Sequence record: PQ433351.1
Source: Escherichia phage vB_Ec-G9
DNA: 44,261 nt
Strand: one strand, 5' to 3'
Part shown: one piece after another, positions 1 through 44,257 of the stretch
How the letters are laid out: each line of letters starts with the position of its first letter
Position numbering within the stretch: the stretch's first letter is position 1
Translations under genes and position numbers: made by a program
The notes under the pieces: model-generated
What the model saw: only the letters and a program-made list of their open reading frames with translations
Database searches by the model: none
Told to the model about the DNA's origin: nothing

Positions 1-1988
1 TGGCTATTATTCAGAATGTACCGTGTCCTGCCTGTCAAAAGAATGGACATGATGTTACCGGCAACCATCTCATGATCTTTGATGATGGTGCTGGCTATTG
101 CAACCGTGGTCACTTCCACGATAACGGAAAGCCATACTACCATAAGCCCGAAGGTGGCATCGAGATAACCGAGTTGCCTATTACTGGCAATATCAAATAT
201 ACACCTTCTCAGTTCAAAGAGATGGAGAAGGAAGGGAAGATAAGCGACCTTAAGCTACGCGCCATCGCACTAGGTGGTATGCGTATGAAAGACCGTTGGG
301 AGGTTATGAATGAGCAAGAAAGGGCAGACCAAGAAGCAGATTGGAAACTTGATGTTGAATGGTTCCTCACGCTTAAGCGTAAGAACCTTGTATCCCGACA
401 CATTCGCGGCGACATCGCAGCACTATATGATGTGCGAGTGGGCCATGATGAGGAAGGAAGAGTCAATCGTCACTACTACCCCCGCTTCGAGAAAGGTGAG
501 CTAGTAGGCGCTAAGTGCCGTACCTTACCTAAAGACTTTAAGTTTGGTCATTTAGGTAAACTATTTGGTATGCAAGATCTTTTCGGTATGAATACTTTGT
601 CTCACGTGTTAGACAAGGGAAGACGAAAGGATTGCTTGCTTATTGTAGGCGGCGAACTTGATGCACTAGCAGCCCAGCAGATGCTTCTTGATTCCGCCAA
701 GGGCACTAAGTGGGAAGGACAACCATATCATGTGTGGTCTGTCAACAAGGGTGAGTCTTGCCTTGAAGAGATAGTGCAGAACCGTGAACACATCGCTCAA
801 TTCAAGAAGATTATATGGGGCTTTGATGGTGATGAGGTTGGGCAGAAGCAGAACCAACAAGCGGCTCGCCTGTTTCCTGGTAAATCCTATATCCTTGAGT
901 ATCCTTCTGGGTGCAAAGATGCTAACAAGGCATTGATGGCTGGCAAGGCTAAAGAATTTGTGGATGCTTGGTTTAATGCAAAGTCATCTGATGAAGTCTT
1001 TGGTAGCCAGATTAAATCTATCGCATCTCAAAGGGATAAGCTCAAGGCTGCACGTCCAGAGCAAGGACTATCATGGCCTTGGCCTAAGCTGAACAAGGTA
1101 ACGCTAGGTATTCGTAAGAACCAACTTATCATTGTAGGCGCAGGCTCTGGTGTAGGTAAGACTGAGTTCCTTCGTGAAGTAGTTAAGCACCTCATTGAAG
1201 AACACGGTGAATCTGTAGGCATCATTTCTACAGAAGACCCGATGGTCAAGGTGTCCCGTGCTTTTATCGGCAAGTGGATTGATAAGCGTATTGAGTTACC
1301 GCCAACCAACGACCCGAAAGAAGATGGATACCGTGAGGTGTTCGACTACACCGAGGAAGAGGCTAACGCCGCCATTGATTATGTAGCTGATACAGGTAAG
1401 CTGTTTGTAGCTGACCTAGAGGGTGACTATTCGATGGAAAAGGTAGAGCAAACTTGCCTAGAGTTTGAGGCTATGGGCATTTCTAATATCATCATTGATA
1501 ACTTAACGGGGATTAAATTAGATGAGCGTGCTTTTGGTGGGAAGGTTGGTGCACTTGATGAATGCGTCAAGCGGATTGGTACTATCAAAGACCGACACCC
1601 GGTTACTATATTCCTTGTATCACACCTTACACGTCCTCCGGCAAACCGTACCCAACACGAAGAAGGTGGCGAGGTTATCCTTTCTGACTTCCGAGGTTCA
1701 GGCGCTATCGGATTCTGGGCATCTTACGCCTTGGGGATTGAGCGTAATACAAGAGCTGAAACGCTTGACGAAAGGACTACCACGTACATCTCATGTGTCA
1801 AAGACCGCGACCAAGGAATCTGGACTGGAACCAAGGTCATGCTTAAGGGTGACATTCAAACCGGACGTTTAATGGAACCACAAGCCCGTACTAAGTCATT
1901 TGATACAGGTGAAGCAAGGCAACAAGAGGTGCCGGATTTACCGGACACTATAGAAGAGACAACCTTTGACGATGAACAGGAGTTTTAA
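1..1988 (+). CDS. DNA primase/helicase (T7 gp4-like); 5' end runs off the window start, the ATG is formed by pos 44261 + pos 1-2
   Basis: Open in frame from pos 3 with no stop; N-terminal Cys zinc ribbon CPAC...CNRGH typical of primases; Walker A GAGSGVGKT in helicase half; acidic C-terminus ending DDEQEF. Confidence 0.85.
   Translation, partial: AIIQNVPCPACQKNGHDVTGNHLMIFDDGAGYCNRGHFHDNGKPYYHKPEGGIEITELPITGNIKYTPSQFKEMEKEGKISDLKLRAIALGGMRMKDRWEVMNEQERADQEADWKLDVEWFLTLKRKNLVSRHIRGDIAALYDVRVGHDEEGRVNRHYYPRFEKGELVGAKCRTLPKDFKFGHLGKLFGMQDLFGMNTLSHVLDKGRRKDCLLIVGGELDALAAQQMLLDSAKGTKWEGQPYHVWSVNKGESCLEEIVQNREHIAQFKKIIWGFDGDEVGQKQNQQAARLFPGKSYILEYPSGCKDANKALMAGKAKEFVDAWFNAKSSDEVFGSQIKSIASQRDKLKAARPEQGLSWPWPKLNKVTLGIRKNQLIIVGAGSGVGKTEFLREVVKHLIEEHGESVGIISTEDPMVKVSRAFIGKWIDKRIELPPTNDPKEDGYREVFDYTEEEANAAIDYVADTGKLFVADLEGDYSMEKVEQTCLEFEAMGISNIIIDNLTGIKLDERAFGGKVGALDECVKRIGTIKDRHPVTIFLVSHLTRPPANRTQHEEGGEVILSDFRGSGAIGFWASYALGIERNTRAETLDERTTTYISCVKDRDQGIWTGTKVMLKGDIQTGRLMEPQARTKSFDTGEARQQEVPDLPDTIEETTFDDEQEF
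1935..1958 (+). promoter_or_regulatory. phage RNAP promoter embedded in primase/helicase 3' coding region
   Basis: GATTTACCGGACACTATAGAAGAG matches the window's promoter consensus; encodes PDTIEE in frame. Confidence 0.7.
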
Positions 1989-3465: not shown

Positions 3466-5998
3466 TTGGAAGAAGGAGGCAGAAGGTCGTATCCTCGTGA
3501 TGGATGCGGAAGCTAAAGGACTCCTTGACGCTATCCGATATGGACACCGTGAAGATGTGCATATCATTTGCTGCATGGATTTGCTTACTACCGAGGAGTT
3601 TCTCTTCTTTGACCCGTATGAGATGCGTGACCCTGAAGCAAGAGAACGCCTGAAGGAATGGGAAGGTCATCAAGATGGAACCTTGGTTGACGGTGTTAAC
3701 TTCCTGAAGCATTGTGAAGCTATTGTGTCACAGAACTTCCTAGGGTATGACGGCCTTCTCTTTGAGAAGGCATTCCCTGATATTTGGAAAGGCTTTAACT
3801 ATACCGAGAAGCGCGGTAAGGGCAGACTCCGTGCTGACCTGTGTCCTATCCGTGTTGTAGATACGCTGGTGATGAGTCGTCTGCTAAACCCAGATAGACG
3901 CCTTCCTCCGCAAGCATATGCCAAAGGCATGGGTAACGTCGCCCCTCACTCAATTGAGGCGCACGGCATCCGTATAGGCCGCTATAAACCAGAGAACAAG
4001 GACTGGTCTAAACTAACTGACCACATGGTTCACCGTGTACGTGAAGACGTGGCAATTGGTCGTGACTTTTTCCTATGGCTTTACAACGGAGAGTGGACGG
4101 AGCACAAACGCCGTGGCGTGAACAAACGTACTGGCCTAGGGATTGAGACAGCCTTCCACATGGAGTCCATTGTGGCGCTGGAGATGAGCCGTCAGGCAGA
4201 GCGTGGATTCCGTCTGGATATTGACAAAGCACTAGCGCGATGCGAAGAACTGGACGCTAAGATTGATGAGACAGTCGCAGCGTTCCGCCCTCACATGCCT
4301 ATGCGTATCAAGTCTAAACCTTTTAAACCGGAAGAAAAGAATGAAGTATGCCAACGCGCAAATGAGTATGGAGCTAGCAACAATATACCTACTGTCCTTG
4401 ACCCCTCACACTTTCTTCATGCCGAGAGACGAGGAGATCGCAAGACAGTATGGAGTGTCACTACTAAGTCTGGTGATTGGTCGGCTAGTGTCAAGAAAGA
4501 CTTTCCTCACCTTAGAGGAAACCGTAATGACACGCCAAGCATCAAGTGGATTGGCGCTTACTCGCCTGTTACTTTCGAAGAGATTCCCTTGGGTAACAGG
4601 GATACAGTTAAGCAAGTGCTCTATGATTATGGATGGAAAGGTGTTGAATTTAACGATACCGAGCAAGCGCATCTCGATGAGCACGGAGTGTTACCCAAAC
4701 CTTGGAGTGGTAAGATAAATGAAAAGTCCCTTACTTTATGGCAAGAAAGAGCCGCACGTGAAGGTAAAACAGTCCCTGATTGGTGCTTGGGTATCGCTGC
4801 ATGGTACATACTCGTATCCCGTCGTGGTCAGATACTCAACCGTGGTGACGTTGAAGCCTTCAACGAGAAGGGAACGTGGCCCTCGCAGGCTGGTGTACGA
4901 AAGTGTCGCGGCCTTGTACCTGTAGCATTCAACAAGGAGCTAGGAATCAATGCGCAGCAATACTACGAGAGGTACGGATGTTGGCCTACGTCTGACAAAG
5001 ATGACGGAGAGTGGCGTGTTCCAGCTGTTGCTATTAGCATTGGCACTTCTACGTTCCGTATGCGTCATCGTAACGTGGTTAATATTCCTGCCCGTGGCTT
5101 GTATCCTTTACGTGATTTATTCATAGCAGGGAAAGGCAAGCTAATCCTTGGTTGTGACGGTGCAGGTCTTGAACTGCGTGTCCTGTCTCACTTCATGAAT
5201 GACCCTGAGTACCAAGAGATTGTACTGCACGGTGATATTCATACGCATAACCAGATGAAGGCTGGTCTTCCTAAGCGTGATATGGCGAAGACGTTTATAT
5301 ACGCCTTCCTCTATGGCTCTGGTATAGCCAACCTTGCAGCAGTATGTGGTGTTACTGAGGAAGAAATGAAGGAAGTTGTGGCAAGATTCGAGATTGAACT
5401 ACCATCTCTTGCACGTCTTCGTGAGAATGTTATCGCACAAGGTAACAAGTTTGGCTACCTGCAAGCACCTGATGGACATTGGGGTCGCATCCGCATGTCT
5501 GGTGGTGAACTTAAAGAGCACACGATGCTTAACGTATTACTCCAGATGACTGGCTCTTTGTGTATGAAATATGCATTAGTCAAGGCATTTGCAGTAATGC
5601 GCAAGGAAGGTGTAGCCTTGGATGCTATGGGAAATCCTTGTGGTGTGGCTAACGTGCATGATGAAATCCAGATGGAAGTTCCTGAAGAGGAGGTCTTGTA
5701 TCTTAACTACGACCTACCTTTCACCTTAGATGGGTTCGAAACAGAGAAGGTTGCCGTGAAAGCAGTGTTCGATGCAGAGGAGAAACGTGTTCATGTGGAT
5801 TCTGAAGGACGTATGTGGTCTGCTGCAAACCTAGTTAGTGTTGATGCTGATGCTGGTGTATTGCATTGCCAGCGCCGTTATCACCGTGCAGGTCATATCA
5901 TTGCCGACGCCATGACTTGGGCAGGGCAGTATCTGAAGATGCGTTGCCCGATGGCAGGCGAATATAAGATTGGCGCAAGTTGGAAGGAAACACACTGA
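3452..5998 (+). CDS. family A DNA polymerase with 3'-5' exonuclease domain (T7 gp5-like)
   Basis: Exo motif ILVMDAEA near N-terminus; pol motifs DGAGLELRV, KTFIYAFLYGSG, VHDEIQ; start placed at ATG 3452 (RBS GAGG) rather than ORF-track 3425. Confidence 0.9.
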   Translation: MKTIDWKKEAEGRILVMDAEAKGLLDAIRYGHREDVHIICCMDLLTTEEFLFFDPYEMRDPEARERLKEWEGHQDGTLVDGVNFLKHCEAIVSQNFLGYDGLLFEKAFPDIWKGFNYTEKRGKGRLRADLCPIRVVDTLVMSRLLNPDRRLPPQAYAKGMGNVAPHSIEAHGIRIGRYKPENKDWSKLTDHMVHRVREDVAIGRDFFLWLYNGEWTEHKRRGVNKRTGLGIETAFHMESIVALEMSRQAERGFRLDIDKALARCEELDAKIDETVAAFRPHMPMRIKSKPFKPEEKNEVCQRANEYGASNNIPTVLDPSHFLHAERRGDRKTVWSVTTKSGDWSASVKKDFPHLRGNRNDTPSIKWIGAYSPVTFEEIPLGNRDTVKQVLYDYGWKGVEFNDTEQAHLDEHGVLPKPWSGKINEKSLTLWQERAAREGKTVPDWCLGIAAWYILVSRRGQILNRGDVEAFNEKGTWPSQAGVRKCRGLVPVAFNKELGINAQQYYERYGCWPTSDKDDGEWRVPAVAISIGTSTFRMRHRNVVNIPARGLYPLRDLFIAGKGKLILGCDGAGLELRVLSHFMNDPEYQEIVLHGDIHTHNQMKAGLPKRDMAKTFIYAFLYGSGIANLAAVCGVTEEEMKEVVARFEIELPSLARLRENVIAQGNKFGYLQAPDGHWGRIRMSGGELKEHTMLNVLLQMTGSLCMKYALVKAFAVMRKEGVALDAMGNPCGVANVHDEIQMEVPEEEVLYLNYDLPFTLDGFETEKVAVKAVFDAEEKRVHVDSEGRMWSAANLVSVDADAGVLHCQRRYHRAGHIIADAMTWAGQYLKMRCPMAGEYKIGASWKETH

Positions 5999-6114
5999 TG
6001 GATAGGCTTGACATTGTTTACCTATTCTTCACTTTCTTTCTTACACTCCTTATGCTTGCTTGTTATGGGAGTATGAGACTAGATATACCTGATGAAGAAG
6101 AGGGTTACGACTAA
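5998..6114 (+). CDS. small membrane protein (38 aa)
   Basis: ATG overlaps DNAP stop (TGATG); hydrophobic core. Confidence 0.25.
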   Translation: MDRLDIVYLFFTFFLTLLMLACYGSMRLDIPDEEEGYD

Positions 6115-6212: not shown

Positions 6213-6269
6213 GTTATACTCAAGGTCACTTACGAGTGGCCTTTATGAATAACTTAACTGGAGAGTATT

Positions 6270-6530
6270 ATGATTAAATCACAGAAGTATTTCTCAACTA
6301 AAGATCGTAAGGTAGATTTTGAAATCAAAGTTTGGGAAGACGGACACATTACTATTATTTACGAAGGTAAAGGTTCTAATGGTATGATGCTACGTAGATG
6401 CCGTACATTCACAAAGAAAGAATGTATGCATATGTCTGAATGCATGTTTCTTTACATCATTGCTGATGATATTAAAGGTATGAAGCTAATTGTATCTCTA
6501 CCTTTAATACCTAAATCTTTGTTAGGTTGA
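6270..6530 (+). CDS. hypothetical protein (86 aa)
   Basis: ORF with RBS GGAG upstream. Confidence 0.5.
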   Translation: MIKSQKYFSTKDRKVDFEIKVWEDGHITIIYEGKGSNGMMLRRCRTFTKKECMHMSECMFLYIIADDIKGMKLIVSLPLIPKSLLG

Positions 6531-6551
6531 TTTACTGGACACTATAGAAGG
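6531..6551 (+). promoter_or_regulatory. phage RNAP promoter
   Basis: TTTACTGGACACTATAGAAGG. Confidence 0.8.
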
Positions 6552-6616
6552 AAAGCCTAGGTAATCTAGGTTTATAAGGTAGTATGGGTAATTAAGTAAA
6601 TATAGGAGATATAAAT

Positions 6617-6994
6617 ATGTCAATGGTGACTACTCTGGTATTCGTAGCTCAATACTTTCGTGGTTTGGCTAACAAGTTCAAAGCTAAGGCTATCAAAGCT
6701 ATTGAGTCTCGCATTGAAGCAGTACAGGCAGAGCAGTTTGAAGTTGAAGAACATCGTAGTTCTCAAATGATTGACTGCCACAATCGCTACTATGCATCTC
6801 GTGATGACCTTAATGCACGTCAAGTCAAAGAGGTAGAAGAGATGATGGCACGTCACCAGCAAGAGCGAGACAATCTGAAGGCAGACTTTGAAGAGAACAA
6901 AGCATCCATTGCACTGGTACATCAAGCTGCATCTGACAGCCTGAAGAAAGAGATTGTTATGCTGGAGATTGAACTGGACAATCTGACCAAATAA
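6617..6994 (+). CDS. hypothetical coiled-coil protein (125 aa)
   Basis: RBS AGGAG upstream; charged heptad-like sequence. Confidence 0.6.
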   Translation: MSMVTTLVFVAQYFRGLANKFKAKAIKAIESRIEAVQAEQFEVEEHRSSQMIDCHNRYYASRDDLNARQVKEVEEMMARHQQERDNLKADFEENKASIALVHQAASDSLKKEIVMLEIELDNLTK

Positions 6995-7071: not shown

Positions 7072-7875
7072 ATGGCACGTAATTTTGATTTTGGCGCAGA
7101 GGTCACTAAGTCAGAAGGTAAAGTATTTAAGAACCCAGAAGTGGGCGACCATGAAGCTGTAATCTCTGGAATCATTCATGTTGGTTCCTTCCAAGATATC
7201 TTTAAGAAAGGCAATACCACTGAAGTTAAGAAGCCAGCAAACTTTGTTCTTGTTAAGATTGTCCTGATGGGTGATGATGACAAGAACGAAGATGATTCAC
7301 GCATGGAACAGTGGATGGCTGTGCCTCTGAAGTCAGGTGATAAAGCTACTCTGACTAAGTTCCTGAATGCAGTTGATCCTAAAGAACTGCTGGGTGGCTT
7401 CGATGACTTCATCGGTGAATGCCTGACTGCAACTATGGTTGGCTCTGGCGACAAGAATGATGATGGTACTTTCAAGTATGTTAACTGGAAAGGCTTTGGC
7501 GGTATGCCTGATAAGTTGAAGAAGCTTGTACTGGCTCAGGTAGAAGAGGAAGGTCTGTCTATGACAGGTCATATCACCTTCGACAAGCTGACCAAAGAAA
7601 TCCTTGATGACATCCCAGCTAACTTGGTACGTCAATACTTCCTGAACGAGACACCTCGTGGTAAGAACCTGTCTGTTGCTGGCTCTCACGTAGAAGCTAT
7701 TATCAAAGCTGCTCGTGAAGAAGACCCAGAGTGGAAGAAAGCCAAGAAGAAAGATGACGAGGATGCTACTCCAGCTAATCGTAAGTCTCTGGATACTGGC
7801 GAGTCTGTTCCACAGGAAGTACCTGAAGCAGAAGATACTCCTGCACCGGAGATGGATGAGGACGCGGAATATTAA
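7072..7875 (+). CDS. abundant protein with acidic C-terminal tail; candidate ssDNA-binding protein (267 aa)
   Basis: RBS AGGAG; highly biased (expression-type) codon usage; C-terminus EMDEDAEY; position and tail resemble T7 gp2.5 logic; sequence similarity not established. Confidence 0.6.
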   Translation: MARNFDFGAEVTKSEGKVFKNPEVGDHEAVISGIIHVGSFQDIFKKGNTTEVKKPANFVLVKIVLMGDDDKNEDDSRMEQWMAVPLKSGDKATLTKFLNAVDPKELLGGFDDFIGECLTATMVGSGDKNDDGTFKYVNWKGFGGMPDKLKKLVLAQVEEEGLSMTGHITFDKLTKEILDDIPANLVRQYFLNETPRGKNLSVAGSHVEAIIKAAREEDPEWKKAKKKDDEDATPANRKSLDTGESVPQEVPEAEDTPAPEMDEDAEY

Positions 7876-11822: not shown

Positions 11823-12326
11823 ATGTCACACTATGAATGTAAGAAGTGTCATAAGCGTTATGATTACTGTACTTGTGGTCAAGAGAAAACATCTTTTAAA
11901 GTTGGAGACAAGGTATTTCGTAATGAAAAAGATTCGATTCCTTGGAATCAATACTGCAAAGAAGCTGGTATTGACCCTGATAGCCCTGTAACCATAGATG
12001 ATATTGATGGCATTAACTTGTGCTTTCGTGAGGTGAGGGGTACAGGTTGGGATTCCAAAAAATTCAAACTTGCATCTGATAAGTTAGACAACAATATGGT
12101 AACTCAGCCTAAGCACTACGAGTTCTTTGATGGCGTAGAAGCAATTACTATCATCGCCCGTAGTATGACCGAGAAGCAATTCGCGGGGTATTGCATGGGT
12201 AATGCTTTGAAGTATCGTCTGCGTGCAGGTAAGAAGTTCAATACTGAAGAAGACCTGAAGAAAGCAGACTACTACAAAGAGTTATTCCAGAAGCATCGTC
12301 ACGAATGTATTGATGAGGATATTTGA
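11823..12326 (+). CDS. hypothetical protein with N-terminal Cys-rich zinc-ribbon-like segment (167 aa)
   Basis: RBS GGAGG before ATG 11823; CKKCHKRYDYCTC; conserved-looking C-terminal block GYCMGNALKYRLRAGKK. Confidence 0.6.
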   Translation: MSHYECKKCHKRYDYCTCGQEKTSFKVGDKVFRNEKDSIPWNQYCKEAGIDPDSPVTIDDIDGINLCFREVRGTGWDSKKFKLASDKLDNNMVTQPKHYEFFDGVEAITIIARSMTEKQFAGYCMGNALKYRLRAGKKFNTEEDLKKADYYKELFQKHRHECIDEDI

Positions 12327-13595: not shown

Positions 13596-14053
13596 TACGT
13601 CCAGCTTCCTTCCTAGATATTCCTGAGATTATAAACCTTGGGAATAAATATGTGGAAGAGGAAGTCAAGGTAGTGGCCCATCACTCAGCCTCATGGAATG
13701 TAGAACAAAGCGCGCATAACCTTTGCGCATCTCTTAGTAGAGAAGATTTATTCCTATGGGTTGCTGTAGATGAAGGGCGGATTGTAGGGTTCCTGTGGGC
13801 TGGCTATCACGAGTTGGGCCCTTGGACACCTGTAAGGGTTGCCTCTGACATTCTCTTTTATATTATACCAGAGAAGCGAGGAACCCTACTTGGTATGCGT
13901 CTCATCAAAGCCCTAAAGCAATGGGCTAGTGATAATGAATGCTCTGAGGTTCGCCTGTCTATCGCCTCTGGTATTAATGAAGAACGTGTCGGACGTATGT
14001 ATAAGCGACTTGGCTTTGAACCGTTTGGCACTGTGTACAACCTGAAGTTCTAA
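13592..14053 (+). CDS. GNAT-family N-acetyltransferase
   Basis: GNAT-like core IVGFLWAG ... EKRGTLLGMRLIKAL ... YKRLGFEPFG. Confidence 0.65.
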   Translation: MIRPASFLDIPEIINLGNKYVEEEVKVVAHHSASWNVEQSAHNLCASLSREDLFLWVAVDEGRIVGFLWAGYHELGPWTPVRVASDILFYIIPEKRGTLLGMRLIKALKQWASDNECSEVRLSIASGINEERVGRMYKRLGFEPFGTVYNLKF

Positions 14054-29607: not shown

Positions 29608-31505
29608 TGGCTAAGGCAAGAGAATCACAAGCGGAGGCTCTTGCCAGATGGGAGATGCTACAGGAGTTACAGCAGACCTTTCCTTACACAGCGGAAGGTT
29701 TGCTTCTCTTTGCAGATACAGTTATCCATAACTTGATTGCAGGCAACCCTCATCTGATTCGTATGCAGGCTGATATCTTGAAGTTCCTATTCTACGGACA
29801 TAAGTATCGCCTCATCGAAGCGCCTCGTGGTATCGCTAAGACAACACTATCAGCAATCTATACGGTATTCCGTATTATCCATGAACCGCATAAGCGTATC
29901 ATGGTTGTATCCCAAAACGCCAAGCGAGCAGAGGAAATCGCAGGTTGGGTAGTTAAAATCTTCCGTGGCCTAGACTTTCTTGAGTTTATGCTACCAGACA
30001 TCTACGCAGGGGACCGTGCATCCGTTAAGGCGTTTGAGATTCATTACACCCTACGTGGTAGTGATAAGTCTCCTTCTGTATCCTGTTACTCAATCGAAGC
30101 AGGTATGCAGGGTGCTCGTGCTGATATTATTCTAGCGGATGACGTAGAGTCGATGCAGAATGCTCGTACGGCAGCGGGCCGTGCCTTGCTTGAGGAACTG
30201 ACTAAGGAGTTTGAATCTATCAACCAGTTTGGGGATATCATTTACCTTGGTACACCTCAGAACGTAAACTCTATCTACAACAACCTACCTGCTCGTGGTT
30301 ACTCTGTTCGTATCTGGACTGCGCGTTACCCTTCAGTAGAGCAAGAGCAATGTTATGGCGACTTCCTTGCACCTATGATTGTTCAAGATATGAAGGACAA
30401 CCCAGCACTTCGCTCAGGGTACGGGTTGGATGGTAATAGTGGTGCACCTTGTGCCCCTGAAATGTATGATGATGAAGTCCTGATTGAGAAGGAAATCTCT
30501 CAGGGTGCTGCTAAGTTCCAGCTTCAGTTCATGCTTAACACTCGCATGATGGATGCTGACAGATACCCATTACGCCTGAACAATCTAATCTTCACCTCGT
30601 TTGGTACAGAGGAAGTCCCTGTGATGCCTACGTGGAGTAATGATTCCATAAACATCATTGGTGATGCACCTAAGTATGGTAACAAGCCTACGGATTTCAT
30701 GTACAGACCTGTAGCTCGCCCATACGAATGGGGTGCTGTCTCCCGCAAGATTATGTATATTGACCCTGCGGGTGGTGGTAAGAACGGAGATGAGACGGGT
30801 GTAGCCATCGTATTCCTGCACGGCACATTCATTTATGTGTATCAGTGCTTTGGTGTACCTGGTGGATACCGAGAGTCGTCCCTGAATCGCATTGTGCAGG
30901 CCGCAAAGCAGGCGGGTGTTAAAGAGGTATTCATTGAGAAGAACTTTGGTCATGGCGCGTTTGAGGCGGTAATTAAGCCGTACTTTGAACGAGAGTGGCC
31001 TGTAACTCTGGAAGAGGATTACGCCACCGGACAGAAAGAGTTGCGTATCATTGAGACGCTGGAGCCGCTCATGGCAGCCCATAGGCTTATCTTCAATGCA
31101 GAGATGGTGAAGTCAGACTTCGAGTCGGTACAGCACTATCCGCTTGAACTACGCATGTCCTACAGTCTTTTCAATCAAATGTCGAACATAACGATTGAGA
31201 AGAACAGCCTCCGGCACGATGACCGCCTAGACGCCCTGTATGGCGCTATACGGCAATTAACTTCTCAGATAGACTATGACGAGGTTACACGGATTAATCG
31301 CCTCAGAGCGCAGGAGATGCGCGATTACATCCATGCTATGAACACACCTCATCTACGCAGGGCAATGCTATATGGAGATTACGGTACTGAGCGAAGAGTG
31401 ACCAACACTTCCGTAGCGATGCAGCAGCGAGTTTACGGGCAGAACTACCGAAATAAATCGGCAAGCAGAAATACACTTTCTGCAAGGATTTCAAGGACTT
31501 ATTAA
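29607..31505 (+). CDS. terminase large subunit
   Basis: ATPase motif region GHKYRLIEAPRGIAKTT; size about 630 aa; position. Confidence 0.9.
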   Translation: MAKARESQAEALARWEMLQELQQTFPYTAEGLLLFADTVIHNLIAGNPHLIRMQADILKFLFYGHKYRLIEAPRGIAKTTLSAIYTVFRIIHEPHKRIMVVSQNAKRAEEIAGWVVKIFRGLDFLEFMLPDIYAGDRASVKAFEIHYTLRGSDKSPSVSCYSIEAGMQGARADIILADDVESMQNARTAAGRALLEELTKEFESINQFGDIIYLGTPQNVNSIYNNLPARGYSVRIWTARYPSVEQEQCYGDFLAPMIVQDMKDNPALRSGYGLDGNSGAPCAPEMYDDEVLIEKEISQGAAKFQLQFMLNTRMMDADRYPLRLNNLIFTSFGTEEVPVMPTWSNDSINIIGDAPKYGNKPTDFMYRPVARPYEWGAVSRKIMYIDPAGGGKNGDETGVAIVFLHGTFIYVYQCFGVPGGYRESSLNRIVQAAKQAGVKEVFIEKNFGHGAFEAVIKPYFEREWPVTLEEDYATGQKELRIIETLEPLMAAHRLIFNAEMVKSDFESVQHYPLELRMSYSLFNQMSNITIEKNSLRHDDRLDALYGAIRQLTSQIDYDEVTRINRLRAQEMRDYIHAMNTPHLRRAMLYGDYGTERRVTNTSVAMQQRVYGQNYRNKSASRNTLSARISRTY

Positions 31506-31526
31506 TTACTGGACACTATAGAAGGA
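31503..31526 (+). promoter_or_regulatory. phage RNAP promoter
   Basis: TAATTACTGGACACTATAGAAGGAAGG. Confidence 0.8.
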
Positions 31527-31662
31527 AGGCCCAGATAATAAGAGAAAATAATAGGTAATATATAGGTTAACCTAGGTTATATAGGTATGCCTTAGTATGG
31601 GTGTACTCCTGTACACCCTATTCCTTACTACCTTACTATATTTACATAATAGGAGAGAGACA

Positions 31663-31938
31663 ATGGCTAATGATTATAGTAGTCAACCATTAACAGGTAA
31701 GTCTAAGAGAAAGCAGGTACAACCTGTAAGTGAAGAACTAATGCTTCCGGTACTCCCAAAAGAGGCAGCTAGTAAGAAAAGCAATGTTATTAATGATGCC
31801 ACCAAATCAGGTAAACAGAAAGGGGCCATGGTATGTCTTGAAGTGGACGGTGCATTGCAGATTGCTATCGCGGTTGATGGCAAAGAAGATTCAGAGTGGA
31901 AGTTAGTAACAGTGGGTTCCACTGTTACCCCAGTTTAA
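31663..31938 (+). CDS. hypothetical protein, paralogue 1 of tandem pair
   Basis: RBS AGGAGAG; shares SGKQKGAMV...IA(I/V)A...VTP with next gene. Confidence 0.6.
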   Translation: MANDYSSQPLTGKSKRKQVQPVSEELMLPVLPKEAASKKSNVINDATKSGKQKGAMVCLEVDGALQIAIAVDGKEDSEWKLVTVGSTVTPV

Positions 31939-37990: not shown

Positions 37991-38093
37991 CTTAGGTTAG
38001 CCTTAGTGGACTACCTTAGTTATAACCTTAGTGCTTATCTTAGTAATAGCTTAGTAGTGTACCTTAGTAAGTCTTAGTGTCTTCTCTTAGTGA
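37991..38093. repeat. array of about 9 short [CT]CTTAG[GT] heptamer-like repeats at about 12-bp period
   Basis: GCTTAGG, CCTTAGTG, CCTTAGTT, CCTTAGTG, TCTTAGTA, GCTTAGTA, CCTTAGTA, TCTTAGTG, TCTTAGTG; further scattered copies to 38410. Confidence 0.8.
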
Positions 38094-38238
38094 TTGCACA
38101 TGCAAGCATGTAAGATGCCATTAGGTCGCGGTCGGTAGACCGCTAAAGAAAGAGAATAGTAATAAGATGCAGTAGGAGGAACACCAGAAACCTAGCCAAC
38201 CTAGCCTATCCTAGCTCTGTATCTATTGCTTTTCCTTA

Positions 38239-38254
38239 GTCTCACATGTTAGAC
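38239..38254. repeat. palindrome variant GTCTCACATGTTAGAC (copy 5)
   Basis: One half-site base changed. Confidence 0.75.
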
Positions 38255-43454: not shown

Positions 43455-43470
43455 GTCTAACATGTGAGAC
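43455..43470. repeat. palindrome variant GTCTAACATGTGAGAC (copy 6)
   Basis: Mirror-image variant of copy 5; abuts promoter at 43471. Confidence 0.75.
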
Positions 43471-43495
43471 TTATTTACCGGACACTATAGGATAG
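43471..43495 (+). promoter_or_regulatory. phage RNAP promoter
   Basis: TTATTTACCGGACACTATAGGATAG. Confidence 0.7.
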
Positions 43496-43499
43496 CCGT

Positions 43500-43630
43500 C
43501 GGAGACGGGAAAGAAAGGGAAGATAAAAGGATATAAAAGGAAGTAATAGGTATTAAAGGTTATATATAGGTTTACCTAGGAATACCTATTACCTTCTTCC
43601 TTCCTCTTATTACTACTTAGAGGAAGGGCA
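43500..43630. other. AT-rich imperfect long inverted repeat; candidate replication origin or structured leader
   Basis: Purine-rich arm GGGAAAGAAAGGGAAGATAAAAGGA and pyrimidine-rich arm CCTTCTTCCTTCCTCTT around TATATAGGTTTACCTAGG; sits between two tandem phage promoters just downstream of the RNAP gene. Confidence 0.4.
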
Positions 43631-43640
43631 GATCTAGGTT

Positions 43641-43656
43641 GTCTCACATGTGAGAC
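43641..43656. repeat. 16-bp perfect palindrome GTCTCACATGTGAGAC (copy 7)
   Basis: Exact; 4 bp upstream of promoter at 43661. Confidence 0.9.
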
Positions 43657-43660
43657 TTCG

Positions 43661-43684
43661 TATTTACCGGACAGTATAGATAAG
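43661..43684 (+). promoter_or_regulatory. phage RNAP promoter (variant -5 G)
   Basis: TATTTACCGGACAGTATAGATAAG. Confidence 0.6.
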
Positions 43685-43706: not shown

Positions 43707-44123
43707 ATGCGTAAATCATTAGCTCAAAGAGTAGAGCAAGCAGGTTATACTATACAAGACGACGGCACTATCAAAGGTAAACGAGGTAACACCTTGAAAC
43801 CCTGGCTTCAATCTTCAGGATATCCAGTTGTAAATATAGTATTCAAGAAAGGTACAAGAACAACTACCCTTGTGCATCGCATAATTGCTAGTAAGTATTG
43901 TCCTTGCTCTGACCCATTGGCTAATGATGTAAACCACAAAGACGGAAACAAGACTAATAATGCAGCTTCTAATCTTGAATGGATTACACGTAGGCAGAAC
44001 CGTAATCACTATTTAGGTTTTGAGGACTATATGATACTTACGGCAGATGATGCCCGTAAGAAGAATAATGAGCGCACTATTGCTCGACGTAAATTACTTA
44101 AACAGTTGAATAATAAGGATTAA
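43707..44123 (+). CDS. HNH homing endonuclease
   Basis: LVHRIIASKY ... VNHKDGNKTNNAASNLEW; RBS GGAGG. Confidence 0.8.
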   Translation: MRKSLAQRVEQAGYTIQDDGTIKGKRGNTLKPWLQSSGYPVVNIVFKKGTRTTTLVHRIIASKYCPCSDPLANDVNHKDGNKTNNAASNLEWITRRQNRNHYLGFEDYMILTADDARKKNNERTIARRKLLKQLNNKD

Positions 44124-44125
44124 TT

Positions 44126-44257
44126 ATGCGTACTAACTTTGAGAAGATGACCCGTAAAGCTAACCGTTTTGACATGGAAGAAGGGCAGAAGAAAGGCAAG
44201 AAGCTGAACAAACCTGTCCGCGACCGTGCATCTAAACGCGCTGCGTGGGAGTTCTAA
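44126..44257 (+). CDS. hypothetical small basic protein (43 aa)
   Basis: RBS AAGGA 6 nt before ATG 44126; directly upstream of primase/helicase start. Confidence 0.4.
   Translation: MRTNFEKMTRKANRFDMEEGQKKGKKLNKPVRDRASKRAAWEF

Follow-up and report, generated by a model that had tools for sequence, protein, structure and literature searches.

TAGGT-core direct-repeat arrays in three promoter-proximal leaders of a K1-5-like phage as candidate T7-type origin modules

The genome of Escherichia phage vB_Ec-G9 contains, running from the transcription start at three of its promoters, a direct-repeat array of TAGG(T/A) cores at 9-10 nt spacing, and this array is the entity conserved in related phages. 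We tentatively favor the reading that the arrays are T7-type origin modules (promoter plus AT-rich segment), the transcripts of which would double as structured mRNA leaders. A role at the RNA level is nearly as likely, and the two are not exclusive. The arrays represent a conserved and apparently undescribed variant of the T7-type module of promoter and AT-rich leader. The window (the whole stretch of DNA analyzed, 44,261 nucleotides) is the circularly permuted genome of a coliphage resembling K1-5 (Vectrevirus, Molineuxvirinae, SP6 supergroup, Autographiviridae), with its whole gene set on the + strand and 12 SP6-type promoters (core GAC[AG][CG]TATAG). We refer to the three sites as A (43490-43660), which follows the RNA polymerase gene and lies between two tandem promoters, B (6547-6616), located between the DNA polymerase block and gene 17, and C (31521-31662), which follows the terminase gene and is the locus of the initial annotation of this DNA. 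Over the 1.5 kb around site C, the window is 96-97% identical to K1-5 and many Vectrevirus records, and the site C leader itself is 100% identical in three isolates. As the initial annotation had proposed, all three leaders lie downstream of promoters, which are of the SP6 type:

43471-43494, + strand: promoter A of site A, three mismatches to the consensus, +1 at 43490
6528-6551, + strand: site B promoter, perfect consensus, +1 at 6547
31503-31525, + strand: site C promoter of the SP6/K1-5 type, perfect 20-mer consensus, +1 G at 31521

The initial annotation had drawn attention to a 16-mer, TATAGGTTAACCTAGG, at 31561-31576, to its near-identical counterpart, TATAGGTTTACCTAGG, at 43565-43580, to the hairpin GGGTGTAC-TCCT-GTACACCC at 31599-31618, and to a third, CTAGGT-rich leader. 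All of these were recovered, the third as CCTAGGTAATCTAGGT downstream of the promoter at 6528-6551. When the window was searched for TATAGGTTWACCTAGG with up to two mismatches, only the two named 16-mers matched, and two such matches were reached in none of 100 shuffles, indicating that the 16-mer match is not due to chance. Leaders A, B, and C coincide exactly with the three densest clusters of TAGGT/ACCTA across the 44 kb window. The description of these elements as conserved AT-rich palindromes, however, was not upheld, as what is conserved is a direct-repeat array with a period of 9-10 nt, accompanied by a covarying hairpin. The 12-bp palindrome is broken in the close relatives L008 and L009 and missing in SP6 and the other genera, and the site A counterpart is non-palindromic in most K1-5-like phages. 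We therefore reject the palindrome, which lacks conservation in relatives, as the functional unit; it is incidental, because direct repeats in which TAGGTnnCC is followed by TAGGT produce CCTAGG/GTTAAC junctions.

The distances between successive [TCA]AGG[TAG] anchors cluster sharply at 9 and 10 nt (51 and 57 cases, respectively), with 16 further cases at 11 nt and a harmonic at 18-20 nt, and the repeat consensus is roughly wTA-TAGGTAAT-mn. Regular spacing exceeds that of dinucleotide shuffles (1000 per leader) at p <= 0.003 in 8 of 13 leaders and is weaker in phD2B. On the + strand of the window, chains of at least four anchors at 8-12 nt spacing are confined to leaders A, B, and C. Across relatives, the core positions are fixed and the spacers variable, while copy number changes by whole units over a range of 3 to 10. 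Whole-unit insertions and deletions as well as (TA)n expansion can be seen (L022, L028), and promoter and leader have been swapped as cassettes between lineages (L004, L014). The array register starts within the promoter itself, at TATAG-AAGG; in the Klebsiella phage, an uninterrupted, in-register series of ten units connects the TATAGAAGGA of the promoter with the hairpin. Arrays A, B, and C begin at, or no more than about 55 nt from, the +1 of a phage promoter and are found on the sense strand every time, inside 5' leaders. Their composition (0-9% C versus 24-27% G) reflects a strong strand asymmetry, and at sites A and C, a G-free CU-rich tract lies 3' of the array. At the DNA level, the array is the only feature common to all three sites; in the predicted RNA, most of it is paired at A, and it is single-stranded at B and C. 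Related word arrays also occur near the genome termini.

Site C is a 142-nt leader that connects its promoter, the start of which overlaps the stop codon of the terminase large-subunit gene (31503-31505), to gene 41:

31521-31598, + strand: repeat array of about eight units of 9-11 nt, in register from +1
31599-31618, + strand: GC hairpin GGGUGUAC-UCCU-GUACACCC, -14.7 kcal/mol including a short extension
31619-31649, + strand: CU-rich tract lacking G, UAUUCCUUACUACCUUACU..., which separates the hairpin from the SD
31650-31665, + strand: SD (UAGGAG) and ATG (31663) of gene 41, phrog_2725

The array (70% AT, 9% C), which includes the 16-mer at 31561-31576, has clear TAGGT cores at 31552, 31563, 31573, and 31582. 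Its first three units, upstream of 31552, are degenerate (GAAGGAAGGC, CCAGATAATA, and AGAGAAAATA), and its final unit is GCCTTAGT (31589-31596). In 11 of 11 lineages, the hairpin retains a perfect Watson-Crick stem of 5-10 bp, according to a loop-anchored pair count, and stem positions 1-5 each occur with two or three pair types, indicating compensatory change. One GenBank record carries an automatic annotation of this hairpin as a 'putative terminator'. Judged as an intrinsic terminator, it has an 8-bp stem with 5 GC pairs and a weak U-tail, UAUUCCUU, which qualifies only under a lenient 5-T-in-8 rule; in other lineages, the tails are longer and U/C-rich. The CU tract is predicted to pair either with the purine-rich 5' start of the leader or with the SD, and a comparable G-poor, CU-rich tract is present in all site C relatives examined. 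Taken as a whole, site C does not fold better than shuffles (z = -0.58), and besides the hairpin the only recurrent structure is pairing of the 5' end with the CU tract, a helix that in several lineages encloses the array as a displayed loop. RNAalifold returned no structure for the MAFFT alignment of site C, because that alignment is poor.

Site B is located about 430 bp downstream of the DNA polymerase gene and consists of a single short leader:

6547-6616, + strand: array leader, with TAGGT at 6558 and 6567, AAGGT at 6577, and TGGGT at 6586 (TAGGT in relatives)

Here, the array continues in register into the SD TAGGAG (6603-6608), with the gene 17 ATG at 6617, and the SD (UAGGAG in the transcript) resembles a terminal repeat unit. 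The leader is 72% AT and 4% C, and its predicted RNA structure is limited to a small 5' hairpin. At 6217-6252, the window also contains a clear homologue of the T7 R1.1 RNase III hairpin, the signature of which, GAGTGGCCTTTATGA (6222-6248), is found once in the window, at 12248-12262 in SP6, and in T7 only at 1456 and 5875, positions that we take to be R0.5 and R1.1. In relatives without the 86-codon ORF (6270-6530), the R1.1-like hairpin lies about 45 nt upstream of the site B promoter. Site B is thus preceded by this hairpin in these phages, and the resulting order of hairpin, promoter, and AT-rich periodic leader matches the T7 primary origin in its right half.

The promoter of site A is located 109 nt past the stop of the RNA polymerase gene (43381), beyond a terminator-like hairpin, and is followed by a leader with several structured segments:

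43496-43508, + strand: 5'-terminal stem-loop CCGUCGGAGACGG, which covaries in relatives (CCAUCGGAGAUGG, GCCCUCGGAGAGGGA, CCAUCGAAGAUGG)
43509-43598, + strand: array, a C-free purine-rich arm with seven anchors at about 10 nt spacing, including the 16-mer at 43565-43580
43599-43627, + strand: third hairpin of the leader, CCUUCCUCU...AGAGGAAGG
43641-43679, + strand: palindrome GTCTCACATGTGAGAC (43641-43656), then promoter B (+1 at 43679)

Promoter A lacks a gene of its own; promoter B drives an HNH insert and then a homologue of T7 gene 1.1 (44126-44257; Pfam PF08200, Phage_1_1). Within 43537-43598, the array arm pairs with a CU-rich arm to form a hairpin that is long and irregular (z = -3.06). 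Among seven relatives folded, z ranges from -2.4 to -3.9 in five, and the hairpin is not significant in two close K1-5-like relatives (z of -0.9 and -1.5). In every lineage examined, it comprises about 17-22 bp with bulges, and some of its stem changes are G.U-compatible (L053). With its two promoters and the gene 1.1 homologue that follows, site A shows strict synteny with the T7 primary origin; the syntenic counterpart of site C is phiOR. This positional logic had been overlooked in the initial annotation, which had offered secondary origins, RNA stability or processing elements, and regulator binding sites as possible functions. An origin and an RNA element are indeed the two leading readings after testing, but by synteny site A would not be a secondary origin. 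As for RNA processing, it is plausible for the long site A hairpin only, as an RNase III-type site, and the canonical T7-type RNase III site is the separate one at 6217-6252. Taken together, the interpretation given in the initial annotation is partly supported.

Conservation in relatives, which had been predicted at the outset, was strongly confirmed by comparing the motif across relatives and other genera. The comparison covered IMG/VR relatives at the terminase locus (27), the RNA polymerase locus (16), and the gene 17 locus (15), the complete genomes of SP6 (Zindervirus) and phD2B (Tuodvirus), and, for site C alone, the corresponding regions of PM 93 (Acadevirus) and of a Molineuxvirinae phage of Klebsiella. 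Arrays were found in at least five genera. SP6 has all three sites at homologous positions, phD2B has shorter versions of them, and site C is also present in PM93 and VR702. In Njord, a Pseudomonas phage of the Colwellvirinae, C-poor arrays of a different word, AGTAGC, occupy the post-RNAP and post-terminase positions. Between the window and its relatives, the site B leader is 83-87% identical, compared with 70% for gene 17 there and 55% for its third codon positions. The site C leader (60-72% identity) is about equal to the highly conserved 3' end of the terminase gene and exceeds both third positions and gene 41. The arrays are thus conserved at least as well as the coding DNA that flanks them. 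A similarity search with the site C leader detected it in 108 phage records, with Escherichia, Salmonella, Klebsiella, Proteus, Citrobacter, and Raoultella hosts, and no copy was found in 5,426 E. coli genomes; a site A query likewise found no copy among PLSDB plasmids. No Rfam family matched anywhere in the window at the gathering threshold, and permissive scans returned only chance matches far below threshold, the weak resemblances of site A being to miRNA precursors only, i.e., long hairpins. PHROGs, Pfam, and PDB sequence searches on the downstream genes gave nothing informative other than the gene 1.1 homologue and the HNH endonuclease. A search of the available literature found nothing direct on origin mapping, RNase III sites, or leader repeats for SP6/K1-5.

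In terms of nearest-neighbor duplex stability, leaders A, B, and C are the three least stable segments of the genome in both 40-bp and 100-bp windows. The same measure applied to T7 as a control recovers phiOL, phi1.1B, phi6.5, phi10, and phiOR. T7 replication starts at phi1.1A/B, the primary origin, with phiOR and phi6.5 as secondary origins, and each origin requires a T7 promoter (PMC8373140). However, the T7 phi10 leader is also of low stability, yet it is not among the origins named in that source (PMC8373140). When the + strand of T7 was searched for clusters of at least three CTT(T)AA(A)G words at 10-12 nt, a single one emerged, at 5930-5952, within the AT-rich segment of the primary origin. 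This segment, after phi1.1B, is both a component of the origin and the leader of gene 1.1. To our knowledge, T7-type origins do not require any sequence-specific element beyond the promoter. With respect to priming, the T7 origin contains a single primase recognition site (PMC2910064), and the SP6 primase site is 5'-GCA-3' (PMC2034472). In leaders C and A, GCA/TGC occurs in isolation (31588-31590 on the - strand and the conserved GGGCAGA at 43625-43631, respectively), and the repeat units lack GCA. An array of primase sites was consequently rejected, as the units do not contain the GCA read by SP6 primase (PMC2034472). Two further measures were not discriminating. In both SP6 and the window, the cumulative GC skew reaches its minimum 0.5-0.9 kb downstream of site A, but the T7 control fails (9.5 kb or 2.1 kb); in a change-point fit, the T7 intervals are very broad, and the signal is confounded with the boundary between early and middle genes. 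In R-loop propensity, computed as RNA:DNA minus DNA:DNA stability, neither the arrays nor the T7 origins stand out.

That the leaders occupy the positions of T7 origin promoters makes them good candidates for SP6-group replication origins or, alternatively, RNA control elements. From position, synteny, and duplex stability, we tentatively infer origin activity at A, B, and C, such that site A would match the T7 primary origin (phi1.1A/B) and sites B and C would match secondary origins, phi6.5-like and phiOR-like, respectively. In the mechanism proposed here by analogy with T7, transcription by the phage RNA polymerase would enter the repeat segment of low stability and open the DNA, which, with the 3' end of the transcript, would be handed to the phage DNA polymerase and primase-helicase, and replication would begin after this takeover. 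The origin transcripts would also function as mRNA leaders, which would account for the covarying RNA hairpins. Several observations argue for this reading: the promoter-proximal location of all arrays; their coincidence with the three least stable segments of the genome, by a measure that returns origin-associated leaders in the T7 control; the synteny of A with the T7 primary origin and of C with phiOR; the context of site B in relatives, equivalent to the right half of that origin; the periodic short word in the T7 primary-origin segment as well; the array as the sole common denominator of the three sites, at the DNA level; and the presence of the same three sites in SP6 and phD2B. Moreover, a passage in PMC4837284 credits Dobbins et al. 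with the suggestion of an SP6 origin near the DNA polymerase gene, which the location of site B fits. Other observations sit less comfortably with an origin. In T7, a promoter and AT-richness suffice, leaving the TAGG core and its 9-10 nt period unaccounted for, and the same is true of the nucleotide-level conservation (0.83-0.87 for the site B leader versus 0.55 for third codon positions). Secondary origins should be under weak selection. The strand asymmetry and compensatory hairpins suggest selection on RNA, and low duplex stability may merely reflect AU-rich 5' UTRs, as the T7 phi10 leader illustrates. In addition, the AT-rich segment of site A lies between the two promoters, unlike in T7, and the units are devoid of the SP6 primase site.

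The main competing explanation, which we regard as a serious but still tentative possibility, operates at the RNA level: a C-depleted, unstructured, multivalent UAGGU platform in the 5' UTR, framed by structured elements, that would cooperatively bind a ribosomal subunit or a host or phage protein and thereby affect downstream translation and/or mRNA stability. The invariable sense orientation of the arrays in 5' leaders and the extreme asymmetry between strands, with 0-9% C in the array followed by 0% G in the CU tract, point in this direction, as do the compensatory substitutions in neighboring hairpins and the G.U-compatible stem changes at site A (L053). At site B, the array is in register with an SD that looks like its terminal unit, and the entire leader is more conserved than gene 17. 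Whole-unit variation from 3 to 10 copies is what would be expected of a multivalent platform, and pairing of the 5' end with the CU tract would display the array as a loop in several lineages. However, no binding factor was found. Complementarity to the anti-SD amounts to only 4 nt per unit (AGGU), TAGGAG is a minority SD in SP6 (5 versus 16 AAGGAG), the CsrA core GGA is present in a minority of units, and the AGTAGC arrays of Njord are not SD-like. In-silico removal or shuffling of the array gave no consistent change in predicted SD accessibility, the overall fold of site C does not rise above shuffles, and promoter A lacks its own gene. A single RNA mechanism does not fit all sites, because the array is paired at A and unpaired at B and C. 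Two specific versions were rejected. A CsrA sponge was dismissed on inspection, given that only a minority of units contain GGA. A role of the array as an anti-anti-SD, which would release the SD from pairing with the CU tract, showed no consistent effect, with a mean P(unpaired SD) of 0.29 for the full leader versus 0.31 with the array shuffled, a calculation in which some hairpin boundaries were mis-set.

The remaining explanations are less probable. Processing by RNase III or another endonuclease, with the leaders cleaved to set mRNA ends as at T7 R1.1 between phi1.1A and phi1.1B, is improbable as a general account, and we retain it, at similarly long odds, for the site A hairpin only. That hairpin is long and bulged in all lineages examined, significant by z in most, located at the R1.1 position, and weakly similar to miRNA precursors in Rfam. 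Sites B and C, however, form no long duplex (the site C hairpin has 8 bp only), the canonical R-site is elsewhere and unlike the arrays, and the periodic TAGG core is left unexplained. It is about equally doubtful that the arrays are iteron-like DNA sites, in which phased TAGGT cores at 9-10 bp would be bound by a sequence-specific regulator, roadblock, or initiator. The regular spacing of about one helical turn, the conserved core within variable spacers, the lineage-specific word (TAGGT in Molineuxvirinae, AGTAGC in Njord, and CTTAAG in T7), and the related word arrays near the genome termini would all suit such sites. On the other hand, the period of about 9.6 is shorter than the B-DNA repeat, so that the cores drift around the helix, no Rep-like or DNA-binding family was found in the adjacent genes, and the single orientation and C-depletion suit RNA better. 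Least probable of all is a functionless by-product, in which slippage duplications of the promoter-proximal TATAGAAGG segment would hitch-hike with promoter cassettes. The register from the promoter's TATAG-AAGG, the whole-unit indels and (TA)n expansion (L022, L028), and the exchange of promoter-leader cassettes (L004, L014) are in keeping with such an origin of the repeats. Against it stand cross-genus conservation at or above that of coding DNA, with site B far above third codon positions, the retention of three sites in SP6 and phD2B and of site C in PM93 and VR702, and cores that stay fixed while spacers change. Half-promoter decoys for the phage RNAP, suggested by the likeness of TAGGT to positions -13 to -9 of SP6-type promoters, were also set aside, since K1-5-type phages with TTACTGG promoters keep TAGGT arrays.

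A further possibility, which we consider unlikely, is that the TAGGT arrays are read by a sequence-specific phage or host factor, on DNA or nascent RNA, which would license replication or coordinate expression at the three loci. If true, it would imply a lineage-specific 'leader-repeat code' in T7-supergroup phages, with TAGGT in Molineuxvirinae, AGTAGC in Njord, and CTTAAG in T7, along with the terminus-adjacent word arrays. It would also overlay sequence specificity on a replication and transcription machinery considered to depend on the promoter alone. Specific recognition of the TAGGT core would represent a requirement absent from the T7 paradigm and would offer a compact cis element with which SP6-type systems for expression or replication could be engineered. 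Both SP6 and K1-5 serve as model and therapeutic phages, and the SP6 RNA polymerase is, like its promoter, a standard tool of the laboratory. With three short, conserved, and sharply bounded candidates and the logic of T7 as a positive control, origin mapping and leader function become directly testable.

Compared with known systems, the module most closely resembles the T7 origins, in which AT-rich DNA of the lowest stability in the genome likewise follows a promoter for the phage RNAP. The tandem promoters of site A lie between the RNAP gene and gene 1.1, as in the T7 primary origin, site C is directly 3' of the terminase large-subunit gene, as is phiOR, and an R1.1 homologue accompanies site B, as in the primary origin. 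A short word repeated every 10-12 nt is also a property of the T7 origin leader; the word, however, is CTTAAG in T7 and TAGGT here, where it is present in more copies and more regularly (3-10 at 9-10 nt), and the TAGGT arrays are strongly depleted of C. Furthermore, the AT-rich segment of the T7 primary origin follows phi1.1B, whereas the array here lies between the promoters, in the position of T7's R1.1. With R1.1, site A shares a long irregular hairpin between tandem promoters at that position, but the R-site signature of R1.1 and R0.5 (...AAGGTCA...GAGTGGCCTTTATGA...) is missing from the arrays and present at 6217-6252, and, unlike T7 RNase III sites, sites B and C contain no long duplex. 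Among translational leaders, the T4 gene 32 leader is an unstructured operator with repeated UUAAA beside a structured nucleation element, and STAB-SD-type elements are SD-like 5' stabilizers. Both resemble the arrays in having a long unstructured A/U-rich leader with a short repeated word and an adjacent stable structure upstream of the RBS, and the TAGGT word is partly SD-like. They differ in that the anti-SD match here is 4 nt and that the site A copy is base-paired and away from the RBS. Finally, plasmid and phage iterons are also regularly spaced direct repeats in a candidate origin, but their units are 17-22 bp, compared with 9-10 bp here, no initiator gene was found in the present case, and the TAGGT arrays are located in transcribed leaders with a fixed sense orientation.

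Promoter and leader types have been recombined at the post-terminase loci of two relatives, one of which (L014, 3380-3560) carries a K1-5-type leader behind an SP6-type promoter (TTAGGGGACACTATAG), while the other (L004, 3380-3570) carries an SP6-type leader behind a K1-5-type promoter. Because the two types are recombined in both genomes, the conserved promoter core acts as a crossover point for module exchange. Downstream of its RNA polymerase and terminase genes, Pseudomonas phage Njord has leaders with C-poor arrays (6320-6450 and 43720-43790) of (C/T)AGTAGC, a word differing from the TAGGT core of the direct repeats at sites A, B and C. The use of this word in Njord suggests that periodic leader words extend beyond the SP6 group, with words specific to each lineage.

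Short ORFs labelled 'hypothetical protein' are placed over the repeat array or the hairpin in some database records:

KpnP_VR702 (L066), 72-212, minus strand: annotated ORF over the leader
Window, 31597-31938: annotated ORF over the leader, gene 41 (the gene after site C) being extended to an upstream ATG

Both are probably spurious calls across a non-coding leader.

The palindrome GTCTCACATGTGAGAC, placed 10-15 nt before phage promoters, is kept across subfamilies, being present in the window phage, SP6 and Njord:

Window, 43455-43470: imperfect copy
Window, 43641-43656: copy
Window, 38239-38254: copy
SP6, ~6093-6108 and ~6262-6277: compensatory version GTCCAACGTGTTGGAC
Njord, ~6267-6286, 13726-13760 and 43600-43618: AGTCTCACA..TGTGAGACT

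This element may insulate the promoters as a terminator or pause hairpin, or it may be an operator; as RNA, the window sequence folds only weakly (-4 to -9 kcal/mol, with a non-significant z).

At site A, which follows the RNA polymerase gene, an ORF for an HNH homing endonuclease (PF13392, phrog_959; 43707-44123) is inserted between the second tandem promoter (promoter B, +1 at 43679) and the gene 1.1 homologue. This ORF is missing in most relatives, and the stretch is covered by only 3 of 81 records. In its place, several relatives carry an insertion of ~745 bp within the terminase gene, which in phD2B (L062, also L025) is annotated as a homing endonuclease; L011, L020, L022, L023, L027 and L028 have an insertion of equal size.

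Upstream of site B, which precedes gene 17, positions 6217-6252 hold a hairpin that is clearly homologous to the RNase III hairpin R1.1 of T7 (ACTCAAGGTCAC..GAGTGGCCTTTATGA, z = -2.8). Its 15-mer signature recurs in both reference phages:

SP6, 12248-12262: 15-mer signature
T7, 5875-5889: 15-mer signature, inside the aligned R1.1 region

The signature matches T7 at two positions only, those of the RNase III sites R0.5 and R1.1. In relatives, the R1.1-like hairpin stands ~45 nt upstream of the site B promoter (6528-6551 in the window, +1 at 6547). An 86-codon ORF (6270-6530), for which searches of PHROG and Pfam gave no match, is inserted between the two in the window; L031, L036 and L037 are among the relatives that lack it, and there the hairpin adjoins the promoter.

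Elsewhere in the window, the duplex at 2173-2260, downstream of the promoter at 1944, ranks fourth from the bottom in stability genome-wide and is not a TAGGT array. Gene 18 (7072-7875, phrog_862, 267 aa) encodes an acidic C-terminal tail (...EMDEDAEY) resembling the C-terminus of the T7 gp2.5 SSB, and its product had no match in the PDB at the sequence level. If gene 18 encodes an SSB, site B would head the operon containing it.

Further arrays lie near the natural left genome end:

Window, 38002-38091, adjoining that end: at least eight copies of the word (A)CCTTAGT, one every ~12 bp
Window, 38235, 38268, 38282 and 38302: further (A)CCTTAGT copies
SP6, 260-346: counterpart of the (A)CCTTAGT array
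Window, 38190-38215, minus strand: TAGGT-type array of three tandem 9-bp units, ACCTAGCC-AACCTAGCC-TATCCTAGC

The minus-strand array, which sits in the early region ahead of the first genes, is kept in SP6 (~443-470). The (A)CCTTAGT word is also the final site C unit before the hairpin (GCCTTAGT), and its array is followed by a host-type promoter (TTGACA/TACTAT). This array is analogous to the ACCTAAAG arrays of the T7 terminal repeat.
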